From the NCBI GenBank assembly GCA_963718615.1, contig OY970368.1, positions 1,696,001 through 1,760,000 on the forward strand: a DNA stretch of 64,000 nucleotides. Reading direction: 5' to 3'. The DNA comes from an uncultured cyanobacterium. GTDB lineage: Bacteria; Cyanobacteriota; Cyanobacteriia; PCC-9006; JAAUQQ01. The translations under genes and the position numbers were made by a program. Positions within the stretch are counted from its first letter, which is position 1. The number at the start of each line of letters is the position of its first letter. Of the stretch, positions 29,894-41,203 are shown in pieces. Under the pieces are notes generated by a model. That model was not told the origin of the DNA. It saw only the letters and a list, made by a program, of their open reading frames with translations, and did no database searches.

Positions 29894-30161
29894 GCGTTAC
29901 AGTTATGTGAGAATGTGGCAATGCAAGAGTGAATTGCCACGCAGCTTTGGGTTGATGATGACACCTTATACTTCTTTTTGAATGTAGCTAAGAATACAAT
30001 AATCTTCTGGAGAGATGGGATGCTTGATGAGAATCGATATCAGTGCTAAACGCTCTCTGGCAAAGCTACTATGAATATTTTGCTCTAGCGGAGCCAATGT
30101 GATGGCGATCGCGCTAACATACTCATACGTATTATTTTAAGCTTTCTGGTACGGAGGTATT

Positions 30162-30302
30162 ATGGTTGGCGATCGTTTGCTCCATTTACTGCATGAGTTG
30201 CCTATCGACTACGAGCAGCTGGCCAGAAAGGATCAAGCTCAGCAACTGGATCATCAAACACAAAACATTGATTCAAAGACAAATTTAGGAATTTTGGGCT
30301 GA
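30162..30302 (+). CDS. Possible 46-aa small protein
   Basis: GGAGG a few nt upstream of the ATG; MVGDRLLHLLHELPIDYEQLARKDQAQQLDHQTQNIDSKTNLGILG. Confidence 0.35.
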   Translation: MVGDRLLHLLHELPIDYEQLARKDQAQQLDHQTQNIDSKTNLGILG

Positions 30303-30511
30303 AATGGGTCAGATGTACGAGAGAGTATAGGCAATATACTGATTGGCTGACGCTGCAGGATGACGATTGATGAAAATAAGAAAAAAAGTTTTATTGCCAC
30401 CAAAGTTAATAGATTGATTGTGCCAGAAGATATTTAGTCACTATCATTAGTGTTAAGTTATGGAAAAAACAATATAAATAGGGCAAATCTATCTTTGGAA
30501 GTAATTTAACT

Positions 30512-31396
30512 ATGGCAGACTCTATACTACACAAAATTTCTGGCTGTGAGAACAAATCACGCAGTGGCGATGTGGTTTTTGTTCATGGGCTAGGTGGGGA
30601 CGCTATTAAAACTTGGCATCATAATGAGAAAGCAATAGACAAAAAAGAGATACCTTCAGATTTTTGGTTAAGCTGGCTTGGTCGAGAACGCGATGATTTA
30701 GGAATTTGGTCATTGGGGTACGCATTGGCTCCCTTCGCTAGCCAAGGTGAAACAATGCCGCTAATCGACCGTGCCCGCAATGTGCTGAGTCGTTTTGGTA
30801 ATTATAAACTCGGGGAGCGCCCATTAATTTTTGTCGCTCATAGTATGGGTGGCCTACTTGTAAAACAAATGTTGCGCCAAGCAGCCGATCAACAAGAACA
30901 GAGTTGGCAACAGGTTCGCTTGAATACAAGAGGAATTATTTTTATTGCAACTCCTCATTTTGGATCACAATTAGCCAATTCTATCGAGAAGCTAGGGAAA
31001 ATTCTACCCTCTTCAGTTAGCGTAAACGAATTAATGCCCAATAATCCATATCTTCGTGATCTGAATGACTGGTATCGTGACAACTGTGAAAGTATACCAA
31101 TAAAGATTTACTTCGAAAAATACAAAACAACAAACAACAAACTTTCCTGGTTTAAGACTTTAGTGGTTGATGAAACAAGCTCTAATCCTGGAATTACAGG
31201 AGTTCGTCCTATACCTATTGATGCTGATCATTTGTCAATTTGCAGGCCTGAAAATGAAGAACGACAAATTTATATGGAAACAAGAGACTTTTTAGAAAAG
31301 CATCTCTCATCGTGTTCAAGTGTGCCACACTCAGCATCGACAGAGTTAAAGCATAACGGCCAGTTATTGAAATTGTTAACAAAAAACCCTTTCTAG
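30512..31396 (+). CDS. Alpha/beta hydrolase (PGAP1/SERAC1/SesB-like)
   Basis: VVFVHGLGG, nucleophile elbow FVAHSMGGL, IATPHFGS and DADHLSICRP. Confidence 0.88.
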   Translation: MADSILHKISGCENKSRSGDVVFVHGLGGDAIKTWHHNEKAIDKKEIPSDFWLSWLGRERDDLGIWSLGYALAPFASQGETMPLIDRARNVLSRFGNYKLGERPLIFVAHSMGGLLVKQMLRQAADQQEQSWQQVRLNTRGIIFIATPHFGSQLANSIEKLGKILPSSVSVNELMPNNPYLRDLNDWYRDNCESIPIKIYFEKYKTTNNKLSWFKTLVVDETSSNPGITGVRPIPIDADHLSICRPENEERQIYMETRDFLEKHLSSCSSVPHSASTELKHNGQLLKLLTKNPF

Positions 31397-31437
31397 CCCC
31401 CTTAAAAAAGGCTTTTGATGAGTATTTAAGGGGGCTA
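31381..31437 (+). other. Candidate programmed -1 ribosomal frameshift signal
   Basis: In-phase A_AAA_AAC (31381-31387), 6-nt spacer, 13-bp stem 31394-31406/31425-31437; the -1 frame is open from 31357 to 32106. Confidence 0.5.
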
Positions 31438-31554
31438 CTAAAATTTCTTACAAGACCCAAAATAGTTAAATTTATCCTATTTTCCTCTATCTCTTGTGGT
31501 GGAGTATTCTTACTGCCTGACTGTGCTTTTCGTTTCGCTAACCATCTTGAACAG

Positions 31555-32106
31555 ATGGGAGATCAGGCTGTGTTACAAAAGAATTTCCGAAAAGCACAGG
31601 AGCAATACGAGAGGGCTCAAGAAGCTTACAACTTTTCGGCAAATATGGGATTTTTGCCAGCGGCATCTCGGTGGGCATGGATTGAAGCTGAAAAAAAGCA
31701 ACCAAAATCTGCACTTAGTTATATTGAAAATTTTTCGACTAGAATAGGTAAATTAGCTAATACTAATAATTGGAAACAAGATTATTTCGAGATGAAAGTA
31801 TTTTTACTTATTGAAACTGATCAAATAAAAGAGGCAGAAGAAATCTTAGAGTTTAATATTTTAAGGCCACGAAAAAATCAAGCTGAAAAATCGAAAATCT
31901 GGTTTTTATCGGGAAAACAGTCTTATAGTTCAATTCATGCTTGTCTCACTCTGGAAATTAAAGAGAAGCAATCTAGAGAAAAAAGTGAAAATGAGATCAA
32001 TAGTAAATCTTTAAAATCACAAGAACTCAAAGAAAATTGCATGGGTTCTCTGAATAAAAAGCATCCTATGCATAGACATTTTGGGGACAAATATGATGAT
32101 GCTTGA
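31555..32106 (+). CDS. TPR-like helical domain; frame is open upstream to 31357 and includes a hydrophobic segment
   Basis: GDQAVLQKNFRKAQEQYERA TPR-like helix; no Shine-Dalgarno before ATG 31555 and no upstream ATG/GTG/TTG in frame. Confidence 0.6.
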   Translation: MGDQAVLQKNFRKAQEQYERAQEAYNFSANMGFLPAASRWAWIEAEKKQPKSALSYIENFSTRIGKLANTNNWKQDYFEMKVFLLIETDQIKEAEEILEFNILRPRKNQAEKSKIWFLSGKQSYSSIHACLTLEIKEKQSREKSENEINSKSLKSQELKENCMGSLNKKHPMHRHFGDKYDDA

Positions 32107-33310
32107 AACAAGCAAATCCCTTAAAATTAAGACTGCCCTTTTTTTGAGAGTTTTGGCGCTCTTTATTTTCTTTCCCCTTTCTGCAAATTCCTCTGAGAAT
32201 AGCAGTGAGATCGCCCGTGTAAAAATACATCAAGGTTATGTTCTTTACAAAAATACTTCGACTGGATCTGCGCCAGAAACCGTTACTTTAAAGCGTCAAT
32301 GGTATTCTTCTATCTACCTGTGGGATCATACACTAGAAGGTGGAATTATTAAAGATTACTCCGGAAAATTTAGCTTAGAGTGCATTGGTGATGGCAAAAA
32401 GCTTATTGAGCAAGATATTAAACCTGGAACAGCAATAAATAAGTTATGTATGCCAACTCGGAGAGCTGGAACAACCTCTAGTGAGAAAAGCCTATTTGAA
32501 TGTAACCACGTACTTCGAAATTCTATCAATATTGTACAAGTCCCTTATGTTTTTAGTCCTAGGTACACATTCGTTTTTAATCCAAGACCTCAAATTATAT
32601 GGAATCCAGTCGTAGATGCTAATTCATATACTATCAACCTTTATGCGAATCAGCCTCACTCGGCTACCGATACTGCTATTTGGTCAGAGCCTCTAGAACT
32701 TCCCGCAGAAAGCCTAATAGTGCAAGAGTACTTCGGTGCTCGTATGCTATCGGTAGTATATCCACAGTCGGAAAAAGAGTTGTCTTTTGATCAGAACTAT
32801 AGATTTGAAGTGATAGCCAATCTTAAAGACGGTACAGAAGTCTCTTCTCAGCAAGAGCAGCAACTTTGGAATAAATTATTTAGGGAATGCTTCAATTCTT
32901 ACAACGGTTTGTCCGAGCTTCGCGTTAAGAGAAAATTGCTTGATCCTGAGCTGGAAGCAAGAATTACAAATTTGAATTCGTTGGATAAGGCTATCCTTCT
33001 TTCAGAAAAAGGATTTTATTCAGACTCTTTAAAAATATTAATAGAGCAATACAACACTTCTATAGAGTCAGCAATTTATGCTATTCGAGCTCACCAAATT
33101 TTAGGAAGAATGTATCGAAAAACAAACCTTGCGGTACCAGCTTTTACTGTTTACCAAAGACTCTATTGTATGACTGCTAATAAGCCGAATTTTAGACAAG
33201 AGAACCGATTTTCTTTGGGCAAGTTAGAACAAATAAGTCCAGATTTACCAATTGATCAAAGAACTAGTAGTTGTGATTTTTGGCTGCAGGATATGATGAC
33301 TAGTCAATAA
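32081..33310 (+). CDS. Exported DUF928-like / TPR protein
   Basis: Signal peptide; VPYVFSPRYT..PRPQIIWNPV..NSYTINL; KGFYSDSL resembling DUF928 GFWYDA; TPR-like end. Confidence 0.6.
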   Translation: MGTNMMMLETSKSLKIKTALFLRVLALFIFFPLSANSSENSSEIARVKIHQGYVLYKNTSTGSAPETVTLKRQWYSSIYLWDHTLEGGIIKDYSGKFSLECIGDGKKLIEQDIKPGTAINKLCMPTRRAGTTSSEKSLFECNHVLRNSINIVQVPYVFSPRYTFVFNPRPQIIWNPVVDANSYTINLYANQPHSATDTAIWSEPLELPAESLIVQEYFGARMLSVVYPQSEKELSFDQNYRFEVIANLKDGTEVSSQQEQQLWNKLFRECFNSYNGLSELRVKRKLLDPELEARITNLNSLDKAILLSEKGFYSDSLKILIEQYNTSIESAIYAIRAHQILGRMYRKTNLAVPAFTVYQRLYCMTANKPNFRQENRFSLGKLEQISPDLPIDQRTSSCDFWLQDMMTSQ

Positions 33311-33322
33311 TAGTAAATAAAC

Positions 33323-36300
33323 CTACCAAGGGCTACCTACAATCGTTATTAATGCCCATGTAGAAGGGTGGATATTCTTTTGCTCATTCATTATTTTAAT
33401 TTGCGCTTGTTGTAGTGCTCTAGCTTTTATTATGGGCTTGTCTTGTTCTCTAGCCTTTACAAGTTCTTGATAAAAAATAGTGGTCAACTTGGCTGTTTCT
33501 GAGTATGAAACTTCATCAAGGGTCGCTATGACTGACTTTACTTTAGCTTGTACTGCAGCCCCTGCAAGCGATAGTTCTGGCTCTTCTCCTTCTGCTGTTG
33601 AACAAGCACTTAAGACAAGCAACTCTACGGGAGATGGTGGTGGAGAGTCAAGCTCTAAATCTTTGAAATCTTCCATCGTCAATCTTTCTATTCTGCTATC
33701 CTTACCCTTTTTTATATAAAGATAGGAGTTCTTCGGATCTCCTCCAAAAGCTCCATGAGTAACTAGGTGAATAATAGAAGTATCCTTTCGTGACGCAGGC
33801 TTGAGTTCATCTGTCGTAAAATCTTCAGTATTTGGTAGAAATCTGCCTGTCTTCCAAATCTTTTCTAGTGTTTTAATCTCTTTATCTGCGCCTAATGGGG
33901 CAAGAAAATCTTCGTTAAATCTAGAAGCACCCATAGCGAGCATTTTAACACCCGGCTGCGCAAGATTTCGATAAGTTGGATCTATGCAAGAAAAACTTGG
34001 AATAATTCCAACGCTATATTTTTCGACTAAAAATTTCTGTCCATCATAGAGCAAAGCGATAGGTAGAGATCTGAGTCCTTTTCCCATGACAAAAGATAGA
34101 TTCTGGACATCAGCTTTTTTTAAGTCGTTCTCAATAGGTTTAATAAGCCAATTATAGAGAATCTTTGATGGTCCTAAAAGAGCGCTTCTGGACTCTTGAG
34201 CATCTGTTAGACTCAAAGCATCTTTTATTAGAGAAATCTGCCCTAGAGAACCTTTCCAACTACCAGTTATATTAATACGCTGAATCAAGGTGCTGTTTTC
34301 ATAAGAAAAGTTTATCCCAGAAGGAATGCCAGAATCATCAACATCAAGTATCCCGTATTCTGCAATTGATGCCGAATCTAAAAAATTAAGAACCGTAGTT
34401 TCACCATCGAAAGACAAACTAGGTGAAGGTACTCTTTGTTCTTGCTTTAAGATTTCAATTCTATCTAAAATATTCCGATCATATTGGCTTAAACTTTCGG
34501 AGCTAGAACGCACCTTAACCCATTCTGACAAAACATTTTGTCCCTCTCTGTCAAGATGATGAACAACTCTTAGGCCGTTAGCTGTGACAAGAGCAATGAC
34601 TAATTGATCATCATCTGAGAGATTAGCCGCAGTCCGACTTTCTCCAAGTTTATCCCAAACATCTCTGTTATCTTTGTCAATTTTCTCTAGACTTTCGGAT
34701 TGTTTTGAAGGAAAAAAATCTACGTAGATAACAGCATTTCGTGTATTTGTTGTTCTCTCGACCTGACGTAGCTCTTTTTGAATAGTAAATAGATCCTTAG
34801 GGGGTCTGCACTTAACATTCAAGCCTTTTTCAATCTCAATCGTCTGCTTCTTTTCAACTGCCCCTAAAAATAGTTCGGGACCCGTCAAAGATAATGATGA
34901 GATAAATCTAGGATCCTGAGTTGGATCCTCTAGTAGTTTCAGAGGGGTTTGGAGTTGTGGCAGGGGAATTGCCTCTGGTGCAGAGTCTAAATTGATTGTG
35001 GCAACTGCGACTGAAGAGTCCAGAATATTATCAGTGGCAATGTAGCTAAAACTGTCCGTTCCTGTAAATCCTTGCTTGGGAATATAAGTGAATGATCCAT
35101 CCTCATTTAGATTAAAAACTCCATTTTGGGGAGAAGCGATTAACTGTGCTTTTAATGGCAGACCATTGCGAGGAGTATCATTTTTTAGCACCCCATTAGC
35201 TGCTGAGACTAACAAAAAACGGCTGTCGGGAAGTGCGTAGCTATCTGCCGCCGCAAGAGGCTGATCTTGAGTGATTAGCCGAATGTCTCCCAAACTGAAA
35301 GACCCCACAAAAGATCCTGAAGATAATGTATCTATACCTGTTGTAATGCTACCTGAAGTTCCATTGACTGAAGCGTTACCGATTACGAAGGGAATTGTAG
35401 ACTTGCCACCACGATGAGCAATACTAATTGATCTATTCTGAGTTCCGCCTGCGCTACAAATACTTGTTCCATTACAGCTCGAATTTGGATAAATACTGCT
35501 GAGGGTACCAATAGCTTTGAAGAACTCGCCAGAATTTGCTTCAATGTCTCCTCCCACTCCTTGAGGGGCTCCTGTAGAAGCTGCAATTGAGTTTAGTCTT
35601 ATGCCTCTCGCAGAACTTAATACAACATTGCCACCATTTCCTGCTTGAGAAGATGAATTGATTGTGCCAATTGTCGTATCGATTGCTCCTTCTCGGCTAG
35701 TTAGAGTGATATTGCCAGCATTCCCTAGATCTGAGCGAGTAGCAATACTCATATTGCTACTATTGGCTCGATTAATGACAATATCCTCTCCAGCTTCAAT
35801 TACAACATTTCCTGCATTTCCAAGACCACTGCCAACCCCTGACGTAATGAACGGAGTAAATATGCTACTCTTCGCTAAGAGCGTAATATCGCCGCCATTG
35901 CCAGACTTCGAATCTGCTGAATAGGAACCACTGGATAATGAACTATCTGTAATGCTTCCCTGTAAACTTTCAACAAAGATGGAGCCAGCCCTCCCAGCTT
36001 CTGCACTAGAACCGAGGGTTGTTGTAGTAACGTCTCCAAGAGCTTGGATAAAGATATCACCTCCATTCCCGCCGATATCAGTCCCTTCAGCGACCGCTGT
36101 GTTAGGTGCTGTTCGTACCCTTCCTTCTTCACTGACAATACTTACGGAGCCTGCATTCGCTGGAATCCCATTTGGTGGAATAGTAAAGATCTGGGTATTA
36201 ATATTGATTATATCAATATCCCTAATTGCCTCTACAAATACATTGCCGCTATTTCCTAAGGTTTGATTGGTACCAGTTTTGTTGGAAGTTTGAACTAGGC

Positions 36301-38041
36301 TGTTCGTCAGTTGTATATCTCTACCAGCTTTTAGAAAGATATCTCCTCCATTAGTAGAGATACGCATACTGTCCCCAATAATATTATTACCTGCATTAAA
36401 ACGAATATCACCTCCACTAAAGTTTTCAATATCATTGCCTGAATTGATAATAATATTTTCCCCTGCCTCAATAACAAAATCTGTATTTCTATTTTGTAAT
36501 CGAATGCGACTATCAAACGTTATATTTTCTATTGCCTGAAGGGTGATAGTTCCTACGCTACTTTCTATAGCAGTTCTGCTGATCTCAAAATTATCTGACG
36601 GACTATCCTCAAAGAGAACCTGCCCAGAGTTATTTGTCAGAAATGAATCATCTGCTCCCGCTGTCGATACGATAGTAATATTTCTCGGATCAAACAGAAT
36701 CTGTCCGGCTTCCCCTGACACTGCACTCACATCCACATAGCCATCAAACGCAAGCGACTCCCTTCCAGAAATCTCCACAAATCCACCCTTTGGCAGAAAC
36801 GCAGAAGACGCCCCTCCTGCCATCCCTCCACGACCCTGCGCACTGGCCAACCCATAAAACCGCGTCGTGCCATCTGCCCAAACAAAAATATTGCCGCCAT
36901 TGCCCGAACCCAAAGCATCGGCACGAATCACAGAATCCTGATCAACGAAAGTTTGAGTCGCAGCCAGCGTCGGCTCCTGCCCCTGAAAATCGCCTCCAAC
37001 TCTGACCGTACCCCCACCCGCTTCACCAGAAGCATCAATGGTCACGCCCAGGACAGCAACGCGATCGCCCAACACATTAACCTCACCACCAACCGCTCCC
37101 ATCCCAGCATCAGAAACATCAATCCGACCGCTGGCGATCGTTGTTCCTGCCTCATCAGGAACCCTTGGCCCCGTACTCGTAAGTTGCACCGTTCCATCTG
37201 AATACACCCGAATCCCAGTCGCCTGCTCAACCCCTGCGTCTATCAGTAGCTCTGGCAACGTTAGCATTGGTACCATCCCCGGAAGAGGCTCTCCGTTCAA
37301 TGGTTTCACCGCCAAATTCAGCAATGCTCCAGAGCGATCTAGTTGAACTTGGCTATTCCCCGGAACCGAGAGAAGATTGACTTGTCCTCCGGGAGCAGTC
37401 AAGTCACCAGTGTTCAAAACCTGCCCACCGATCAGACTCAAATTTTGTCCTGGTCTGACCGAAAGCTGGCCAGTGTTTGCGATCGCGCTCGGCTGCACCA
37501 TCGTAAAACCGAGAAACTGGGGAGAACCTACAAGATCTGCATATCCATTGCCGCCAAGGGCATCGAACCACTTCTCAGCAAAACCAATCCCACTTGCGGT
37601 CGTTGCAGTGAAATCTGCTGGTAGATTTAAACGTGACTCAGGTCCAAACAAAACTCCTGAGGGATTCAAAAAAAATAGATTTGCATTGCTCCCGGTGAGT
37701 TGTAGCTCACCGTCGATCAAAGATGCCTTTCCCCCAATCACCCGAATGAGCATATTCTGCAAACTGGTCGGTGACTGGAAATTAGCCGTTTGGCCTTGAT
37801 TGAGCCCAAATTCCTCAAAACTGTGGAATAAGTTGGTCTGATCGCGCGAAAGTGATCCACCCTCAATTTCGACAATGTTACCATTAATACGGACTTGTGT
37901 GCCTGTACTCCCAGCCTCAGGAACGACAGATTGCGATCGAGACATAAGAGGAAACAACACCCAGTACCCGAGCAATCCAGAGAGCGCACCGATCAGGACT
38001 TTTGAGGCGTGAGTCATAGTACAAACCATCCCAAGGAGCAT
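33323..38041 (-). CDS. TPS/haemagglutinin domain + beta-helix + Ig/cadherin-like domain + CHAT protease fusion
   Basis: NLFHSFEEF, FLNPSGVLFG; GVLKND...DGSFTYIP..GTDSFSY; IHLVTHG (His), VLSACSTA (Cys) and HPSTWALITIVGSPW. Confidence 0.9.
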   Translation of the reverse strand: MLLGMVCTMTHASKVLIGALSGLLGYWVLFPLMSRSQSVVPEAGSTGTQVRINGNIVEIEGGSLSRDQTNLFHSFEEFGLNQGQTANFQSPTSLQNMLIRVIGGKASLIDGELQLTGSNANLFFLNPSGVLFGPESRLNLPADFTATTASGIGFAEKWFDALGGNGYADLVGSPQFLGFTMVQPSAIANTGQLSVRPGQNLSLIGGQVLNTGDLTAPGGQVNLLSVPGNSQVQLDRSGALLNLAVKPLNGEPLPGMVPMLTLPELLIDAGVEQATGIRVYSDGTVQLTSTGPRVPDEAGTTIASGRIDVSDAGMGAVGGEVNVLGDRVAVLGVTIDASGEAGGGTVRVGGDFQGQEPTLAATQTFVDQDSVIRADALGSGNGGNIFVWADGTTRFYGLASAQGRGGMAGGASSAFLPKGGFVEISGRESLAFDGYVDVSAVSGEAGQILFDPRNITIVSTAGADDSFLTNNSGQVLFEDSPSDNFEISRTAIESSVGTITLQAIENITFDSRIRLQNRNTDFVIEAGENIIINSGNDIENFSGGDIRFNAGNNIIGDSMRISTNGGDIFLKAGRDIQLTNSLVQTSNKTGTNQTLGNSGNVFVEAIRDIDIININTQIFTIPPNGIPANAGSVSIVSEEGRVRTAPNTAVAEGTDIGGNGGDIFIQALGDVTTTTLGSSAEAGRAGSIFVESLQGSITDSSLSSGSYSADSKSGNGGDITLLAKSSIFTPFITSGVGSGLGNAGNVVIEAGEDIVINRANSSNMSIATRSDLGNAGNITLTSREGAIDTTIGTINSSSQAGNGGNVVLSSARGIRLNSIAASTGAPQGVGGDIEANSGEFFKAIGTLSSIYPNSSCNGTSICSAGGTQNRSISIAHRGGKSTIPFVIGNASVNGTSGSITTGIDTLSSGSFVGSFSLGDIRLITQDQPLAAADSYALPDSRFLLVSAANGVLKNDTPRNGLPLKAQLIASPQNGVFNLNEDGSFTYIPKQGFTGTDSFSYIATDNILDSSVAVATINLDSAPEAIPLPQLQTPLKLLEDPTQDPRFISSLSLTGPELFLGAVEKKQTIEIEKGLNVKCRPPKDLFTIQKELRQVERTTNTRNAVIYVDFFPSKQSESLEKIDKDNRDVWDKLGESRTAANLSDDDQLVIALVTANGLRVVHHLDREGQNVLSEWVKVRSSSESLSQYDRNILDRIEILKQEQRVPSPSLSFDGETTVLNFLDSASIAEYGILDVDDSGIPSGINFSYENSTLIQRINITGSWKGSLGQISLIKDALSLTDAQESRSALLGPSKILYNWLIKPIENDLKKADVQNLSFVMGKGLRSLPIALLYDGQKFLVEKYSVGIIPSFSCIDPTYRNLAQPGVKMLAMGASRFNEDFLAPLGADKEIKTLEKIWKTGRFLPNTEDFTTDELKPASRKDTSIIHLVTHGAFGGDPKNSYLYIKKGKDSRIERLTMEDFKDLELDSPPPSPVELLVLSACSTAEGEEPELSLAGAAVQAKVKSVIATLDEVSYSETAKLTTIFYQELVKAREQDKPIIKARALQQAQIKIMNEQKNIHPSTWALITIVGSPW

Positions 38042-38306
38042 CTGTGTCTACTTGAGATAGTGGCAGAATATTCTTTAACAAGAAAGTAGTTTTACGGATA
38101 CTTTAAAGAGTTGAATAATATTAAGCAGATACTGTGTTGTAAAGAAATTCTGGTGTATTCAGGGGATCCGAAATAGATAAAGTGGTGTGTTTATCTGCTG
38201 AAAAACTTGATTTCCAGCCTGTATGATGTGCTCAAAAACAAGAAACAGGGTTACTGTATGTTATAGCACTATGTCTTACTTAGAGGCGATCGCCTAAATT
38301 ATCGAT

Positions 38307-38439
38307 TCCAAATTAGCTAACCGAGGATGCTGCAACTGGTGCTGCGACAGACAAGCTTTGCCCTTGTGGTTAAATCAGTTTTATACAGAAACTCATTACG
38401 GGTGTCAATCGGATAGCTCTTTAGCTTAAACAAACTTCC
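38307..38439 (-). pseudogene. Degenerate duplicate of the mscS 3' end (direct repeat of 39124-39257)
   Basis: TCCAAATTAG...AAATCAGTTTTATACAGAAACTCAT...TCAATCGGATAGCTCTT.AGCTTAAACAA.CTTCC present at both sites, with substitutions and one indel. Confidence 0.9.
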
Positions 38440-38466
38440 TTTAGGAATTTAAACCTGGAGATTTCC

Positions 38467-39123
38467 ATGATTCAATCCATCCCCGCTACCGAAATCACCC
38501 TACGCACCCTCAAGCAAGCCTTAAATCTCCAGGCTGCCACTGACCCTCAGTTTTTTGCTGAATGGCAAGATGACATTGCCCCAGTCACCGAGATGGAGCA
38601 GGCCTATCTCGATCGGGTGAAAGCTAACTTTTTGGACTTACTCGAAGATCCGCCCGTCCTTGAGAACAGCGTCAAACTGGTGATTTTAGCCCCATTACTA
38701 GACCTCGCGGGTTTCTATCGTCGTCCCTTCCGGATTACCACAGAAACCAGTATTGAAATCGAACTAGAAGATGAAGGCATCGTCATTCGAGGCCGCATTG
38801 ACGTCTTGGTGATTAACGAATTGCTTTGGCTCGTTGTGATTGAATCCAAACGCAGTGACTTTGCCACAACCCGTGCCCTTGCCCAAACCCTGACCTATAT
38901 GCTCAGTAACCCTGAGCGAGAACGATCCACCTTTGGTTTAATCACTAATGGTACTGAGTTTCTCTTTCTCAAAGCTAGTCGTAAGCCAACAGTTCAATAT
39001 GCTACATCTAAACTATTTTCTCTATTCAATCCTGGCAATGAACTGTATCAAATTCTCTCAATTCTCAAACATCTAGCAAAACCCTTGTCTTCAAACTCAA
39101 GGACTCCTCAAACTGAGCGCTAA
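38467..39123 (+). CDS. HsdR_N-like restriction-endonuclease-fold (PD-(D/E)xK) protein
   Basis: RGRIDVLV...VIESKR, LAQTLTYM and GLITNGTEFLF. Confidence 0.8.
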   Translation: MIQSIPATEITLRTLKQALNLQAATDPQFFAEWQDDIAPVTEMEQAYLDRVKANFLDLLEDPPVLENSVKLVILAPLLDLAGFYRRPFRITTETSIEIELEDEGIVIRGRIDVLVINELLWLVVIESKRSDFATTRALAQTLTYMLSNPERERSTFGLITNGTEFLFLKASRKPTVQYATSKLFSLFNPGNELYQILSILKHLAKPLSSNSRTPQTER

Positions 39124-39965
39124 TCCAAATTAGCCAACCGAGGATACTGCAACTGGTGCCGTCGAAAGGCGAGCTTTGCCCTAGTGGTCAAATCAGTTTT
39201 ATACAGAAACTCATCACGAGCATCAATCGGATAGCTCTTGAGCTTAAACAAGCTTCCCCAGGTTTGCTCCTCCAAAATCACCACAATTGGCAACTTGATT
39301 TGGGTGTACTTACTGGTATAAGCTACGCGATATAAAATATTTTGAACCAGTTGGGGATCTGCTTCATGGGCCAAATAGAAAGGGGTAACGACCTGTGCCT
39401 CTAGATCCCCAGAATTAGCATTAGAAATCGCCTCGGTCCAGATCTTATTGTGAGGAAGTGTGACCACATTATCAGAAGGTGTTCGCAGTCTTAATCCCCT
39501 TAGTCCATAGGTAATGACCTCACCGTAATGGTTGTCGATGGTGATGCGATCGCCAATGCGATAGGGAGCCTCAAATAGGCCCAAAACTCCTGCAATCACG
39601 GAGCTAACATAATCCTTGAAAGCAAATCCCAGCGCGACCGCGACTGTTCCCGTGACGGCTAAAACATTCTTCTGGGAAAGATTGAGCAGCAGATTCATTA
39701 ACATAATAATGGCGCTGCCCAAAATCAGCATACGCAAAAAGGGGAGCGACTGCTTAACTCGTAACCGCTGTTCCTTCGCTACCCGTTCCGAAATCCAAAG
39801 GATGAGATGATCAATCCAATTAAGAAAAATATAGGCCAAGAGCAAAATTAAAATTGCCTGCGCGATCTTCCATGTTGTAATTTCTGTAATCAGACGTCGG
39901 GCTTGGTCTGCGGTGTTATTCGTAGGGGTTTGGGCCACTAAAGAAAACCAAATGAGATAGAGCAT
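39120..39965 (-). CDS. mscS: Small-conductance mechanosensitive channel family protein
   Basis: Three TMs; ALGFAFKDYVSSVIAG, PYRIGDRI...YGEV..YGLR and VTLPHN. Confidence 0.85.
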   Translation of the reverse strand: MLYLIWFSLVAQTPTNNTADQARRLITEITTWKIAQAILILLLAYIFLNWIDHLILWISERVAKEQRLRVKQSLPFLRMLILGSAIIMLMNLLLNLSQKNVLAVTGTVAVALGFAFKDYVSSVIAGVLGLFEAPYRIGDRITIDNHYGEVITYGLRGLRLRTPSDNVVTLPHNKIWTEAISNANSGDLEAQVVTPFYLAHEADPQLVQNILYRVAYTSKYTQIKLPIVVILEEQTWGSLFKLKSYPIDARDEFLYKTDLTTRAKLAFRRHQLQYPRLANLD

Positions 39966-40027
39966 AGAAATTCAATCCAAGTCATTCACGTAAACAAATC
40001 TAAGCAAAACAAGTCTAAGCAAAAAAA

Positions 40028-41203
40028 CTAAATCAAAAAGTTATTGCCCGCCAAAGTTCGCCTAAGTTGAGGATAATAAAGCGGATTAATTTGCAGCAAT
40101 TTTTGCTGCTCAATCACTCCAGCCCGCCGCAAAACCGTGACTCGGCTTTGCACTAAGCTTTGGGATTCGCCTAAACTGTCGGCCAGATGGGCGATCGTCA
40201 AACTACCGTGGAGGAGTAGCGAATAGAGTAGGTAATAGTCCGCCGTTGTCAACTCGGGAAGGGAGGGTAACGTCGGGAACTGGGTTTCCAGTCGACCTCC
40301 TTTAGATTCATCGTCTGAATAGGCTAGAGAATGCAGAAAAAGCTGAATAGCAACGGTGCTCAATCCCTCGGAGCGATCGGCCAAAATTCGAAAGTACTCA
40401 GTCTCTAAATCCAGTTGCTCTGTATTGAGCTGCGATCGCAATGAAGTCGAGTTAAATTTTAAGATTTTCCTGATCGCGGCATCATGCACTAGAGGCCGCA
40501 ACCAATCTTGGAGCTGCTGACCGTTTAGTCTCGGCAATTCTAGGGGCTCATCGCAATAGGCTTGTAGCTGACAGACCGTCTCTAAGTATTTCCAGCTCAA
40601 AGAATCAATGCCAATAATCCAAAATCGGGACGGATCATTCCACAACACGTCTCGCAGATAATCGATGCCATCTAAACCTTCCAGCTCTCGTAAAAAACAC
40701 CAGCTTAAATTGGGAATCATTACAATCTCTTTTGCTGTATCGTAGGTCGTTTTTGTCAAACCTCGACCCAACTGTTGTTGCAGTTTTGTAGCGATCGTCT
40801 TTGCTTCGGGTCGGTCGACCCAGTCCAGTAGACGAATGGGGATTTCTAAGGATTGCAGCCTTTGTGCTAAGCTCTCCGTTAAAATTCGTGAAACTGCTGT
40901 AATCGGACTGCTTAGAATGACAAAAACATTGTCCCATTGTTGATGTGTGGCCTGGGCAGACTCGCTAATCCTGCTCCATTTCTCTAGGGCAGCGGTTACG
41001 GCAGACTGAATGGCTGCTTGCTCGTCCGGATGACTTGGCAGCCCTAAAACCAGTTCTTCCAGCGTATAGCGAACATCCGGCGGCAACTGCCGCAGTGAGG
41101 GTTCCGGCTCCTGACTTTCTACGGGATCCGTCGAGAGCCACTGCATCAAAGACGGATGATTTTGAGCAAGCCAGGTTTGAAACGTATTAATTAATGGAGC
41201 CAT
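40028..41203 (-). CDS. Hypothetical protein with a degenerate NTPase-like core and C-terminal winged helix, upstream of mscS
   Basis: 391-aa ORF; LLLHGSLTIAHLADSLGES...LRRAGVIE winged-helix-like end. Confidence 0.6.
   Translation of the reverse strand: MAPLINTFQTWLAQNHPSLMQWLSTDPVESQEPEPSLRQLPPDVRYTLEELVLGLPSHPDEQAAIQSAVTAALEKWSRISESAQATHQQWDNVFVILSSPITAVSRILTESLAQRLQSLEIPIRLLDWVDRPEAKTIATKLQQQLGRGLTKTTYDTAKEIVMIPNLSWCFLRELEGLDGIDYLRDVLWNDPSRFWIIGIDSLSWKYLETVCQLQAYCDEPLELPRLNGQQLQDWLRPLVHDAAIRKILKFNSTSLRSQLNTEQLDLETEYFRILADRSEGLSTVAIQLFLHSLAYSDDESKGGRLETQFPTLPSLPELTTADYYLLYSLLLHGSLTIAHLADSLGESQSLVQSRVTVLRRAGVIEQQKLLQINPLYYPQLRRTLAGNNFLI

Follow-up and report, generated by a model that had tools for sequence, protein, structure and literature searches.

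Does a cyanobacterial gene that ends at a slippery tract and a hairpin encode one protein or two? The gene in question lies in a 64,000-nucleotide (nt) stretch of an uncultured cyanobacterium (positions 1,696,001 to 1,760,000 of contig OY970368.1, assembly GCA_963718615.1), referred to here as the window, whose first letter is position 1 of our coordinates. Its open reading frame (ORF), ORF1, encodes a predicted alpha/beta hydrolase of 294 amino acids (aa), and the −1 frame stays open past its stop codon into a second module, ORF2. An initial reading made from the sequence alone (the sequence-only reading) had proposed that a programmed −1 ribosomal frameshift produces both the free hydrolase and a fusion of about 531 aa. 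We found the slippery tract, the stem and the open −1 frame to be present and extended the observation, and comparison with about 20 loci lends support to the proposal, with the slip site moved one codon downstream, to A_AAC_CCT. A programmed −1 ribosomal frameshift that yields the 294-aa hydrolase together with a 531-aa fusion is, in our view, probable.

Slippery tract and hairpin at the hydrolase stop codon

The 3′ end of ORF1 reads ACA AAA AAC CCT TTC TAG. Besides the in-phase heptamer singled out at first, A_AAA_AAC (31381–31387), it holds two further in-phase heptamers that had been overlooked, A_AAC_CCT (31384–31390) and C_CCT_TTC (31387–31393), and the −1 reading of the tract is AAA AAA CCC TTT. 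The stem described previously is likewise present, with arms TAGCCCCCTTAAA (31394–31406) and TTTAAGGGGGCTA (31425–31437) that pair perfectly over 13 bp; the hairpin folds at −22.2 kcal/mol (z-score −2.49; 4 of 200 shuffles equal it), and the first three bases of its stem are the zero-frame stop, TAG. The locus therefore has the canonical layout of a −1 signal, namely an in-phase slippery motif followed by a 5-nt spacer and then a stable RNA structure, and no Shine-Dalgarno (SD)-like stimulator is visible in the sequence upstream of the slip site. As had also been stated, the −1 frame stays open over 31357–32106, where the first ATG, GTG or TTG is at 31555. The predicted fusion comprises 293 + 238 = 531 aa.

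Interrupted effector–NTPase fusions among the relatives

Among 400 other genomes of the class, 11 yielded homologous loci with flanking DNA (13 loci), and metagenomes yielded another 80, giving, with the present one, 94 hydrolase-bearing loci. We could evaluate 59; the other 35 were left out because the ORF ran off the locus end (15), less than 450 nt lay downstream (11) or the hydrolase match was truncated (9). A long −1 ORF that was open across the hydrolase stop and had no ATG, GTG or TTG up to 25 nt beyond it was present at 13 of the 59 loci, and four others had a long −1 ORF with such a start. Long +1 ORFs were found at eight loci, all with a start at or before +25, and at none without one, while neither arrangement was seen at 34, seven of which were long single-ORF fusions. 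These counts are not independent, since L039/L040, L072/L073 and L091/L092 are near-duplicates.

Six loci had a start-less −1 ORF that would depend on a shift, and in each the first canonical start fell inside the NTPase domain: at residue 56 in L032 (NB-ARC, 40–252), 38 in L039 (NB-ARC, 33–247), 43 in L044 (NB-ARC, 22–253), 46 in L055 (NB-ARC, 26–259) and approximately 64 in L122 (AAA_16, 43–173), while in L041 (NB-ARC, 56–278) the first start, at residue 80, was the Met of the Walker A motif. A single-ORF protein, P0181 (621 aa), was collinear with such pairs. Its residues 1–275 aligned with ORF1 of L044 and residues 281–620 with the −1 ORF of L044 from its residue 1, and it aligned with the −1 ORF of L041 from residue 38, that is, 42 residues ahead of the first start there. 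Because the starts lie inside NTPase domains and P0181 is collinear, the relatives are effector–NTPase fusions broken at a fixed junction by a change to the −1 frame. Termination–reinitiation was dropped as an explanation because the −1 frame of the relatives has no start codon near the stop. A homolog search of both halves in related genomes, which the sequence-only reading had put forward as a check, returned −1-frame relatives for the hydrolase half and none for the ORF2 half.

At three relatives, runs of A9 or T9 replaced CCCT and the hairpin (L038:2168–2180, L044:3915–3927 and L055:3930–3965), and these junctions were without structure (z ≥ −0.02). They could represent a second recoding route, by ribosomal or transcriptional slippage, or else phase variation or homopolymer assembly errors.

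A conserved RNA element at the junction

In a MAFFT alignment of nine junctions, CCCT was invariant (9 of 9) and in phase (C_CCT), and it was again invariant in a second alignment of 16 loci from which the present one was excluded (16 of 16). The slip site conserved in the family is A_AAC_CCT, with the invariant C_CCT at 31387–31390, 3 nt 3′ of A_AAA_AAC. The spacer measured 5 nt in every aligned locus, the stop came 0, 1 or 4 codons past CCT, and the flanks of an 11–13-bp helix aligned across the nine junctions. The family-conserved part of the stem spans 11 bp (31396–31406/31425–31435), to which the present locus adds two pairs.

RNAalifold independently predicted this helix from the nine-junction alignment, with 11 pairs, eight of them showing compensatory changes. 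For the 13 pairs taken from the present hairpin, 82.9% of cells were paired vs. 67.0% after shuffling (reached in 0 of 500 shuffles) and 37–50% when the pairs were slid by 1–3 columns. The corresponding values for the 16-locus alignment were 92.6% vs. 74.5% (0 of 500) and 42–53%, with 8 of 11 pairs changed on both sides. Fifteen of the paired cells in the latter alignment were G·U, which would be A·C on the other strand, so that the structure is a feature of the sense-strand RNA; an attC-like or other DNA-level hairpin was dropped on the same grounds. Among the eight CCCT-type loci with a long −1 ORF, the z-scores of 70-nt folds were −4.2 (the present locus), −5.1, −3.1, −2.7, −2.1, −2.0, −1.3 and −1.2, and 22 control gene ends from the same data set had a mean z of −0.01. 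Motif, spacing and structure are thus conserved across the relatives, with covariation. The hairpin loop (alignment A4, columns 29–44) often carries GGCAC or GACAC at a fixed place, which may reflect coding of the linker (Gly-Thr/Ala) or a contact within the RNA, for instance a pseudoknot.

We searched with two covariance models, R1, built from eight loci including the present one, and R2, built from 16 loci without it; their E-values are rough. Across the 86 other loci, R1 recovered L032, L031, L039 and L040 (E ≤ 2.7e-6), matched L026 and L045 weakly, and matched none of the single-ORF fusions. In the host's own genome it found this locus only. In 151 genomes of the class there were 11 matches outside the own genome, of which two were known (L116, the same as L025, and L118, the same as L032). 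In seven of the nine newly recognized matches the CCT was a codon of an upstream ORF of 143–317 codons, with TAG 0–1 codon later. The upstream ORF was a TIR protein in five (L117, L121, L122, L123 and L126) and a trypsin-like peptidase in L120; that of L119 had no Pfam match, and L119 overlaps L031, which has a partial hydrolase match. A −1 ORF of 306 to at least 518 codons then followed in five of the seven, encoding NB-ARC-TPR (L117, L119 and L120), AAA_16/NACHT (L122) or AAA_16/nSTAND1 (L126), while L121 ran off its contig and the −1 frame of L123 closed after 11 codons. For the remaining two, L124 and L125, there was no ORF context, and these matches are probably false or decayed. As R1 matches follow TIR and trypsin-like ORFs too, the element is tied to the effector/NTPase junction and not to the hydrolase.

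In the 64-kb window, R2 gave one plus-strand match, at 31382–31444 (29 bits, E 1.6e-5), the only other match being the mirror of the palindrome on the minus strand. We consequently place this locus in the class of C_CCT plus stem-loop elements, as judged by motif and fold. A phylum-level search with R2 at E ≤ 1e-4 returned only a training locus; as this locus's own per-genome score would miss that threshold, the result is of little weight. Rfam 15 held no matching family, with a single sub-threshold chance match (HOTAIR_2, E 0.28).

The hairpin had initially also been considered a possible degenerate copy of a dispersed cyanobacterial repeat. We discarded this idea, along with that of a dispersed palindromic repeat or miniature inverted-repeat transposable element (MITE) in general, because the hairpin sequence was unique in the window, the genome and the metagenome scan.

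Two sets of close relatives displayed the element in different states. L039:2783–2836 and L040:1864–1917 are near-identical, with A_AAC_CCT and a −1-frame TAA two codons on in L039, A_AGC_CCT and an open −1 frame in L040, and in both a 12-bp stem containing the zero-frame stop. Within one genus, three states were present: L025 had an intact element and a long −1 ORF, L026 was decayed, and L027 had no element and a TAA stop. In L026 the −1 ORF closed after 6 codons, the hairpin had a z of +0.19, and R1 scored 16.4 bits (E 0.11). This series fits loss of the hairpin after the −1 ORF was gone.

Recoding might also take another route than a tandem −1 slip: the P-site tRNA could slip at the stop, Pro-tRNA could make a short bypass from CCU to the CCC/CCU found in the stem's 5′ arm, or the frame could shift by +2. 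A −1-frame Pro codon does lie just past the stop in L026, L028, L029, L033 and the present locus, the stop is 0–1 codon past CCU in most loci, and in L039 a simple slip would be halted by the −1-frame stop that comes straight past the slip site. However, the landing codon is missing in L025, L030 and L032, L039 is the only locus whose −1 frame does not stay open past the slip site, and A-site slippage needs just such a 5-nt spacer; we regard these other routes as very unlikely.

Alternatively, the gene could be a plain in-frame fusion whose A6 run carries an error or mutation of one base, a possibility raised in the sequence-only reading as well. The host genome, 6.1 Mb in one contig, may come from a long-read assembly, and the homopolymer junctions of L038, L044 and L055 would be in keeping with such errors. 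Against this, the frame relation is the same in relatives that carry the CCCT element and no homopolymer, and single-ORF relatives do not have the element. In addition, seven homopolymer-heptamer pairs scanned with Pfam in the genome, admittedly a weak test, indicated no widespread homopolymer errors (L012, L014, L015 and L016 were plain adjacent genes, L017 a split insertion sequence (IS) transposase, and L013 and L018 uninformative). An error or mutation of this kind is accordingly extremely unlikely. Transcriptional slippage at A6 was dropped, since a run of six is too short for it, and could apply to the A9/T9 relatives.

Rarity of the arrangement within the genome

The genome was scanned for ORFs of at least 150 codons that have an in-phase heptamer in the final 60 nt and whose −1 frame is open for 150 codons or more. 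Of the 45 heptamer sites that passed, solely the three overlapping sites at this locus had a perfect hairpin 3–8 nt downstream. Several of the other sites lay between adjacent unrelated genes (in one case a radical-SAM gene lies downstream of a GH38 gene and the heptamer is again AAAAAAC), and therefore a heptamer plus an open frame carries little weight alone. Four homotriplets in the −1 phase occurred 20 times in 1.8 M codons, vs. 66 and 74 times in the other two phases, and inside the final 45 nt of an ORF at this locus only, genome-wide. The first start lay more than 60 nt beyond the upstream stop in 38 of 363 −1 pairs and 25 of 255 +1 pairs of this genome, which has 52% guanine plus cytosine (GC); an open −1 frame by itself is not unusual here. 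Perfect stems of at least 13 bp were found at 131 positions genome-wide and followed 23 of 3341 gene ends, vs. 3 of 3341 random positions, and because of this enrichment a hairpin after a gene is unremarkable alone. Judged on the window evidence, before the relatives were compared, frameshifting had seemed unlikely to us.

Other junctions and hairpins were noted during these scans. An ISAZ013-type DDE transposase is split into 166 aa and 317 aa in the 0 and −1 frames at an eight-A run (L017; G000:C1:5246175–5247421), and a second copy, near G000:C1:4347887, is also present; this resembles an ordinary IS frameshift or slippage site. At L013 (G000:C1:3698897–3702450), ORFs of 581 aa and 613 aa abut in the 0 and −1 frames at a ten-A run, with a 28-nt overlap window. 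Neither ORF of L013 had a Pfam match, and the locus could be a split gene, a phase-variable tract or a slippage site. A separate hairpin family, GTAGGGAC...GTCCCTAC, resembles repetitive extragenic palindromic (REP) elements and recurs just 3′ of stops, accounting for at least 8 of the 36 long hairpins listed (e.g., at stops G000:C1:4095939, 1234967, 4913666, 403812 and 4758029). It is unrelated in sequence to the ORF1 hairpin.

The downstream module and competing explanations

ORF2 proved to be an orphan. Among 1.84 billion representative proteins it matched itself and, weakly (E 1.4e-4), the TPR region of an nSTAND1-TPR protein, P0123. Protein searches of 60 related genomes returned no relatives of ORF2, DNA searches of 40 such genomes returned none of the locus, and a scan of the genome collection with the DUF928 neighbor gave a single irrelevant match (24% identity). 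This lack of homologs makes a direct comparison of the downstream module impossible. The TPR-like domain ascribed to ORF2 had no Pfam match at E ≤ 0.1 and is weakly indicated by the above repeat match and by protein-language-model look-alikes, which were TPR proteins (0.92, low recognition). Neither an NTPase domain nor a Walker A motif was found in ORF2, which sets it apart from STAND/NLR NTPases. A single-sequence AlphaFold2 model was unusable (predicted local distance difference test score 42).

The hydrophobic segment reported ahead of this module is present (Table 1) and is weak evidence for the membrane anchor attributed to it, because T-rich, low-GC DNA often yields such a stretch: 89 of 742 (12%) low-GC stop-free stretches reach a mean Kyte-Doolittle (KD) value of at least 1.8. 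The relatives carry a Pro/Ser/Ala-rich soluble linker at this place.

Several observations weigh against frameshifting at this locus. An SD-like GGGAG precedes GTG 31570, so ORF2 could start independently, and ORF2 is without an NTPase and without homologs. The 53 gap codons from the stop to the ATG in the −1 frame score −1.6 bits (codon-usage log-likelihood), which ranks at percentile 6 among coding windows and at percentile 81 among non-coding open stretches. Hydrolases of 290–310 aa that stand alone are common, some element-bearing loci look decayed (L026, L123 and L039), and the triple heptamer was noticed post hoc. Lastly, according to excerpts of PMC4066793, A_AA.A_AA.C has low efficiency in Escherichia coli although IS1 uses it, and A_AA.C_CC.A is one of three heptamers below threshold there.

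The locus might instead comprise two independent genes, with the hairpin a terminator, attenuator or mRNA-stability element, ORF2 expressed from GTG 31570 or ATG 31555 in an operon with the DUF928-like gene, and the tract and open frame coincidental. The database protein of ORF2 (P0122, 178 aa, matching query residues 63–239) is annotated from GTG 31570, after the SD-like motif. Codon scores jump at 31555 (+8.8, +10.3 and +5.3 from there on), the gap scores like non-coding DNA, and the last 30 codons of ORF1 score −7.1. The length of ORF1 is normal for a stand-alone relative, long hairpins are enriched at gene ends as noted above, and ORF2 overlaps the start of the DUF928-like gene. Two separate genes would nevertheless leave unexplained why CCCT, a 5-nt spacer and a covarying stem recur before start-less −1 ORFs at about 20 loci, and why R2 matches the locus although built without it. 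Moreover, over the 56 codons of the gap (~36% GC) there are five and six stops in the other two frames and none in the −1 frame, and the hairpin has no U-tract and is absent from the terminator scan list. With its 18-nt loop and a tail, CTAAAATTTC, that has three Ts in its first eight bases, we rejected it as an intrinsic (Rho-independent) terminator. Two independent genes are, on this evidence, unlikely.

The element might alternatively be a relic, inherited from an effector–NTPase ancestor and now unused, with ORF2 a remnant or a new gene that is expressed alone or silent, and any shifted product incidental and unselected. The missing NTPase and relatives of ORF2, its place in a low-GC, probably acquired island, the low codon score of the linker and the decayed copies elsewhere all suit this scenario. 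It sits poorly with a stem that is perfect over 13 bp where the family has 11, with a −1 frame that is intact over 238 codons, with two extra slippery heptamers flanking the conserved one, and with the decay of the L026 hairpin where the −1 ORF had been lost. We consider an unused relic distinctly unlikely, and retain programmed frameshifting as the preferred explanation.

The hydrolase and its genomic neighborhood

ORF1 matched the Pfam profile DUF676 (E 8.1e-8; 32.5 bits vs. a cutoff of 20.3) and, below threshold, PGAP1 (18.5 bits vs. 24.3) as well as LCAT and Abhydrolase_6. It contains the nucleophile elbow AHSMGG, and in an alignment with 22 relatives H110, S111, G113, G114 and H240 were invariant and D237 near-invariant. 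Given a profile score above the curated threshold and the G/A-x-S-x-G elbow, ORF1 is predicted to be a DUF676/PGAP1-like (SesB-type) hydrolase. No hydrolase paralogs of ORF1 were found in the own genome. In homologs the domain is common as an N-terminal effector, fused to NB-ARC or NACHT with TPR or WD40, and further partners, in hundreds of proteins, include TIR, SAVED, CHAT, GUN4, cyclic nucleotide (cNMP)-binding and death-like domains. The named protein relatives came mostly from filamentous cyanobacteria.

The locus lies within a low-GC island at about 29900–41000 (35–45% vs. 52% in the genome) that was probably acquired horizontally. The island contains the hydrolase, ORF2, the DUF928-like gene, a 1572-aa protein with TPS, cadherin-like and CHAT domains, an HSDR_N-like ORF and an MscS-like channel. 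The start of the DUF928-like ORF (TTG 32081 or ATG 32093) overlaps the end of ORF2 by 14–26 nt, and because of this overlap the two are probably co-transcribed, perhaps with translational coupling.

Table 1. Coordinates of the features at the ORF1/ORF2 locus (window positions).
Feature	Position	Strand	Evidence or remark
ORF1, predicted alpha/beta hydrolase (DUF676/PGAP1-like, SesB-type lipase effector), 294 aa, zero frame	30512..31396	+	Pfam and alignment; TAG stop 31394–31396
Slippery tract A AAA AAC CCT TTC, three overlapping in-phase heptamers	31381..31393	+	Sequence reading
Spacer TTCTA, 5 nt, between C_CCT and the conserved stem	31391..31395	+	Includes first two bases of the zero-frame stop
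Stem-loop, 13 bp, 18-nt loop	31394–31406/31425–31437	+	Fold, covariation, covariance model
ORF2 as read after a −1 shift, 238 codons and stop; orphan, helix-rich, weakly TPR-like	31390..32106	+	Translation, protein search
Hydrophobic stretch, −1 frame	31462..31518	+	Mean KD 1.87 over 19 aa
Possible independent ORF2 starts, ATG 31555 and GTG 31570	31555..31572	+	GGGAG 31557–31561, 8 nt before GTG
DUF928-like neighbor with N-terminal signal-like segment	32081..33310	+	DUF928 E 5.2e-4, below cutoff; 5′ end overlaps ORF2 3′ end
Neighbor with TPS secretion domain and CHAT domain, 1572 aa, same low-GC island	33323..38041	−	ORF and domain search

Proposed mechanism and implications

Because a slip site and hairpin recur at the same junction in many immune-receptor-like genes, ribosomes probably slip back one base here. 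The sequence anatomy, its conservation and covariation, the missing starts in the relatives' −1 ORFs, their collinearity with a fused protein and the membership of this locus in the element class are shown here; that ribosomes shift, how often and at precisely which codon, and what each product does for the cell, we infer. In the scheme that we propose, the 3′ end of the hydrolase gene would carry a cassette of an in-phase C_CCU within A_AAC_CCU, two flanking heptamers, a 5-nt spacer and the stem-loop. The majority of ribosomes would stop at UAG and release the 294-aa hydrolase. At the hairpin a fraction would stall with the CCU in the A site bound by Pro-tRNA, shift one base backward to CCC and read 238 more codons, giving a 531-aa protein in which the hydrolase is joined to a helical, weakly TPR-like C-terminal module. 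Excerpts of PMC4066793 place C_CC.U among six shift-prone tetramers that respond to a stimulator in E. coli, and H_HH.U_UU.Y heptamers, including C_CCU_UUC, among the most efficient.

Elsewhere the same cassette would join hydrolase, TIR or trypsin-like effector ORFs to STAND NTPase-TPR ORFs, and since it is common to effector/STAND junctions it would fix the ratio of free effector to effector-sensor fusion. We lean, by a narrow measure, toward a broader proposal: that genomes related to this one contain a portable, hitherto undescribed recoding cassette, placed between effector and NTPase in NLR-like STAND immune proteins with lipase-like, TIR or trypsin-like effectors, that by −1 frameshifting it supplies a pool of free effector and a little full-length protein, and that the present locus is a short variant in which an orphan TPR-like tail replaces NTPase-TPR. 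That an activated receptor then recruits or templates the free effector is speculative. No earlier description of the cassette was found in the full-text literature searched, outside which lie subscription journals and supplementary tables (e.g., GeneTack clusters). Nor was it found in the "frameshift" passages of two STAND/NLR preprints or, by search terms, in the accessible text of Antonov et al. 2013 and Atkins et al. 2016.

Most documented cases of programmed −1 frameshifting in bacteria concern insertion sequences, phages, dnaX and a small number of further genes. If our proposal is true, NLR-like immune or conflict systems would join them as an entire class of cellular genes, and they would bring a defined, searchable 60-nt RNA motif. 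Many annotations of a "stand-alone effector" or an "N-terminally truncated NTPase" would then be halves of one recoded gene, and NLR-like systems would set the ratio of free to receptor-linked effector at translation, which bears on how such receptors restrain a toxic effector and amplify a signal.

Comparison with known systems

The closest parallels in protein content are bacterial NLR-like STAND proteins, including Avs and bNACHT systems, in which the same hydrolase serves as an N-terminal effector module and which resemble the relatives' NB-ARC/NACHT-TPR −1 ORFs. The word "frameshift" does not occur in the retrieved text of two studies by Kaur et al. (eLife 2020, PMC7159879; 2021, PMC8195603). 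NLR-like STAND proteins have an NTPase, whereas ORF2 has none. In fungal and bacterial amyloid-signaling pairs, the gene of a SesB-like lipase effector lies directly upstream of an NLR gene, and the two separately initiated proteins have a short amyloid motif in common. The relatives described here differ in that their downstream ORF has no start codon before the NTPase domain.

In layout, the locus is reminiscent of IS3/IS911 (OrfA/OrfAB) and IS1 (InsA/InsAB′). There too, according to excerpts of PMC4066793, the upstream ORF ends a few codons past an in-phase slippery motif and the downstream −1 ORF has no start of its own, as in the relatives here, and IS3 members have a hairpin or pseudoknot past the motif, with the fusion a minor product. 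Unlike in IS elements, there is no transposase, inverted repeat or repeated copy at this locus, and the conserved motif is C_CCU within A_AAC_CCU and not their A_AAA_AAG or A_AAA_AAC. The comparison with IS1 made in the sequence-only reading holds for the motif, A_AAA_AAC, and goes no further; in those excerpts IS1 has no established stimulator, unlike the hairpin found here.

Among cellular genes, dnaX of E. coli yields two proteins, tau and gamma, in a set ratio by −1 slippage that a downstream hairpin stimulates. The gene copA likewise gives two proteins, CopA and CopA(Z), by −1 slippage, in the available parts of PMC5009743. In both dnaX and copA the shifted product is the shorter one, whereas here, as in IS elements, it would be the longer.

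In the tail assembly chaperones G/GT of phages, the shift keeps its place between two modules and the slippery motif varies by lineage. The G/GT frameshift is alluded to in the accessible part of 10.64898/2026.01.04.697583. A similar pattern is seen here in that the junction position is kept while the motif varies (C_CCU plus hairpin, A9 or T9). The proteins and their biology differ, and the cassette described here, unlike that of G/GT, keeps a recognizable RNA motif across lineages.

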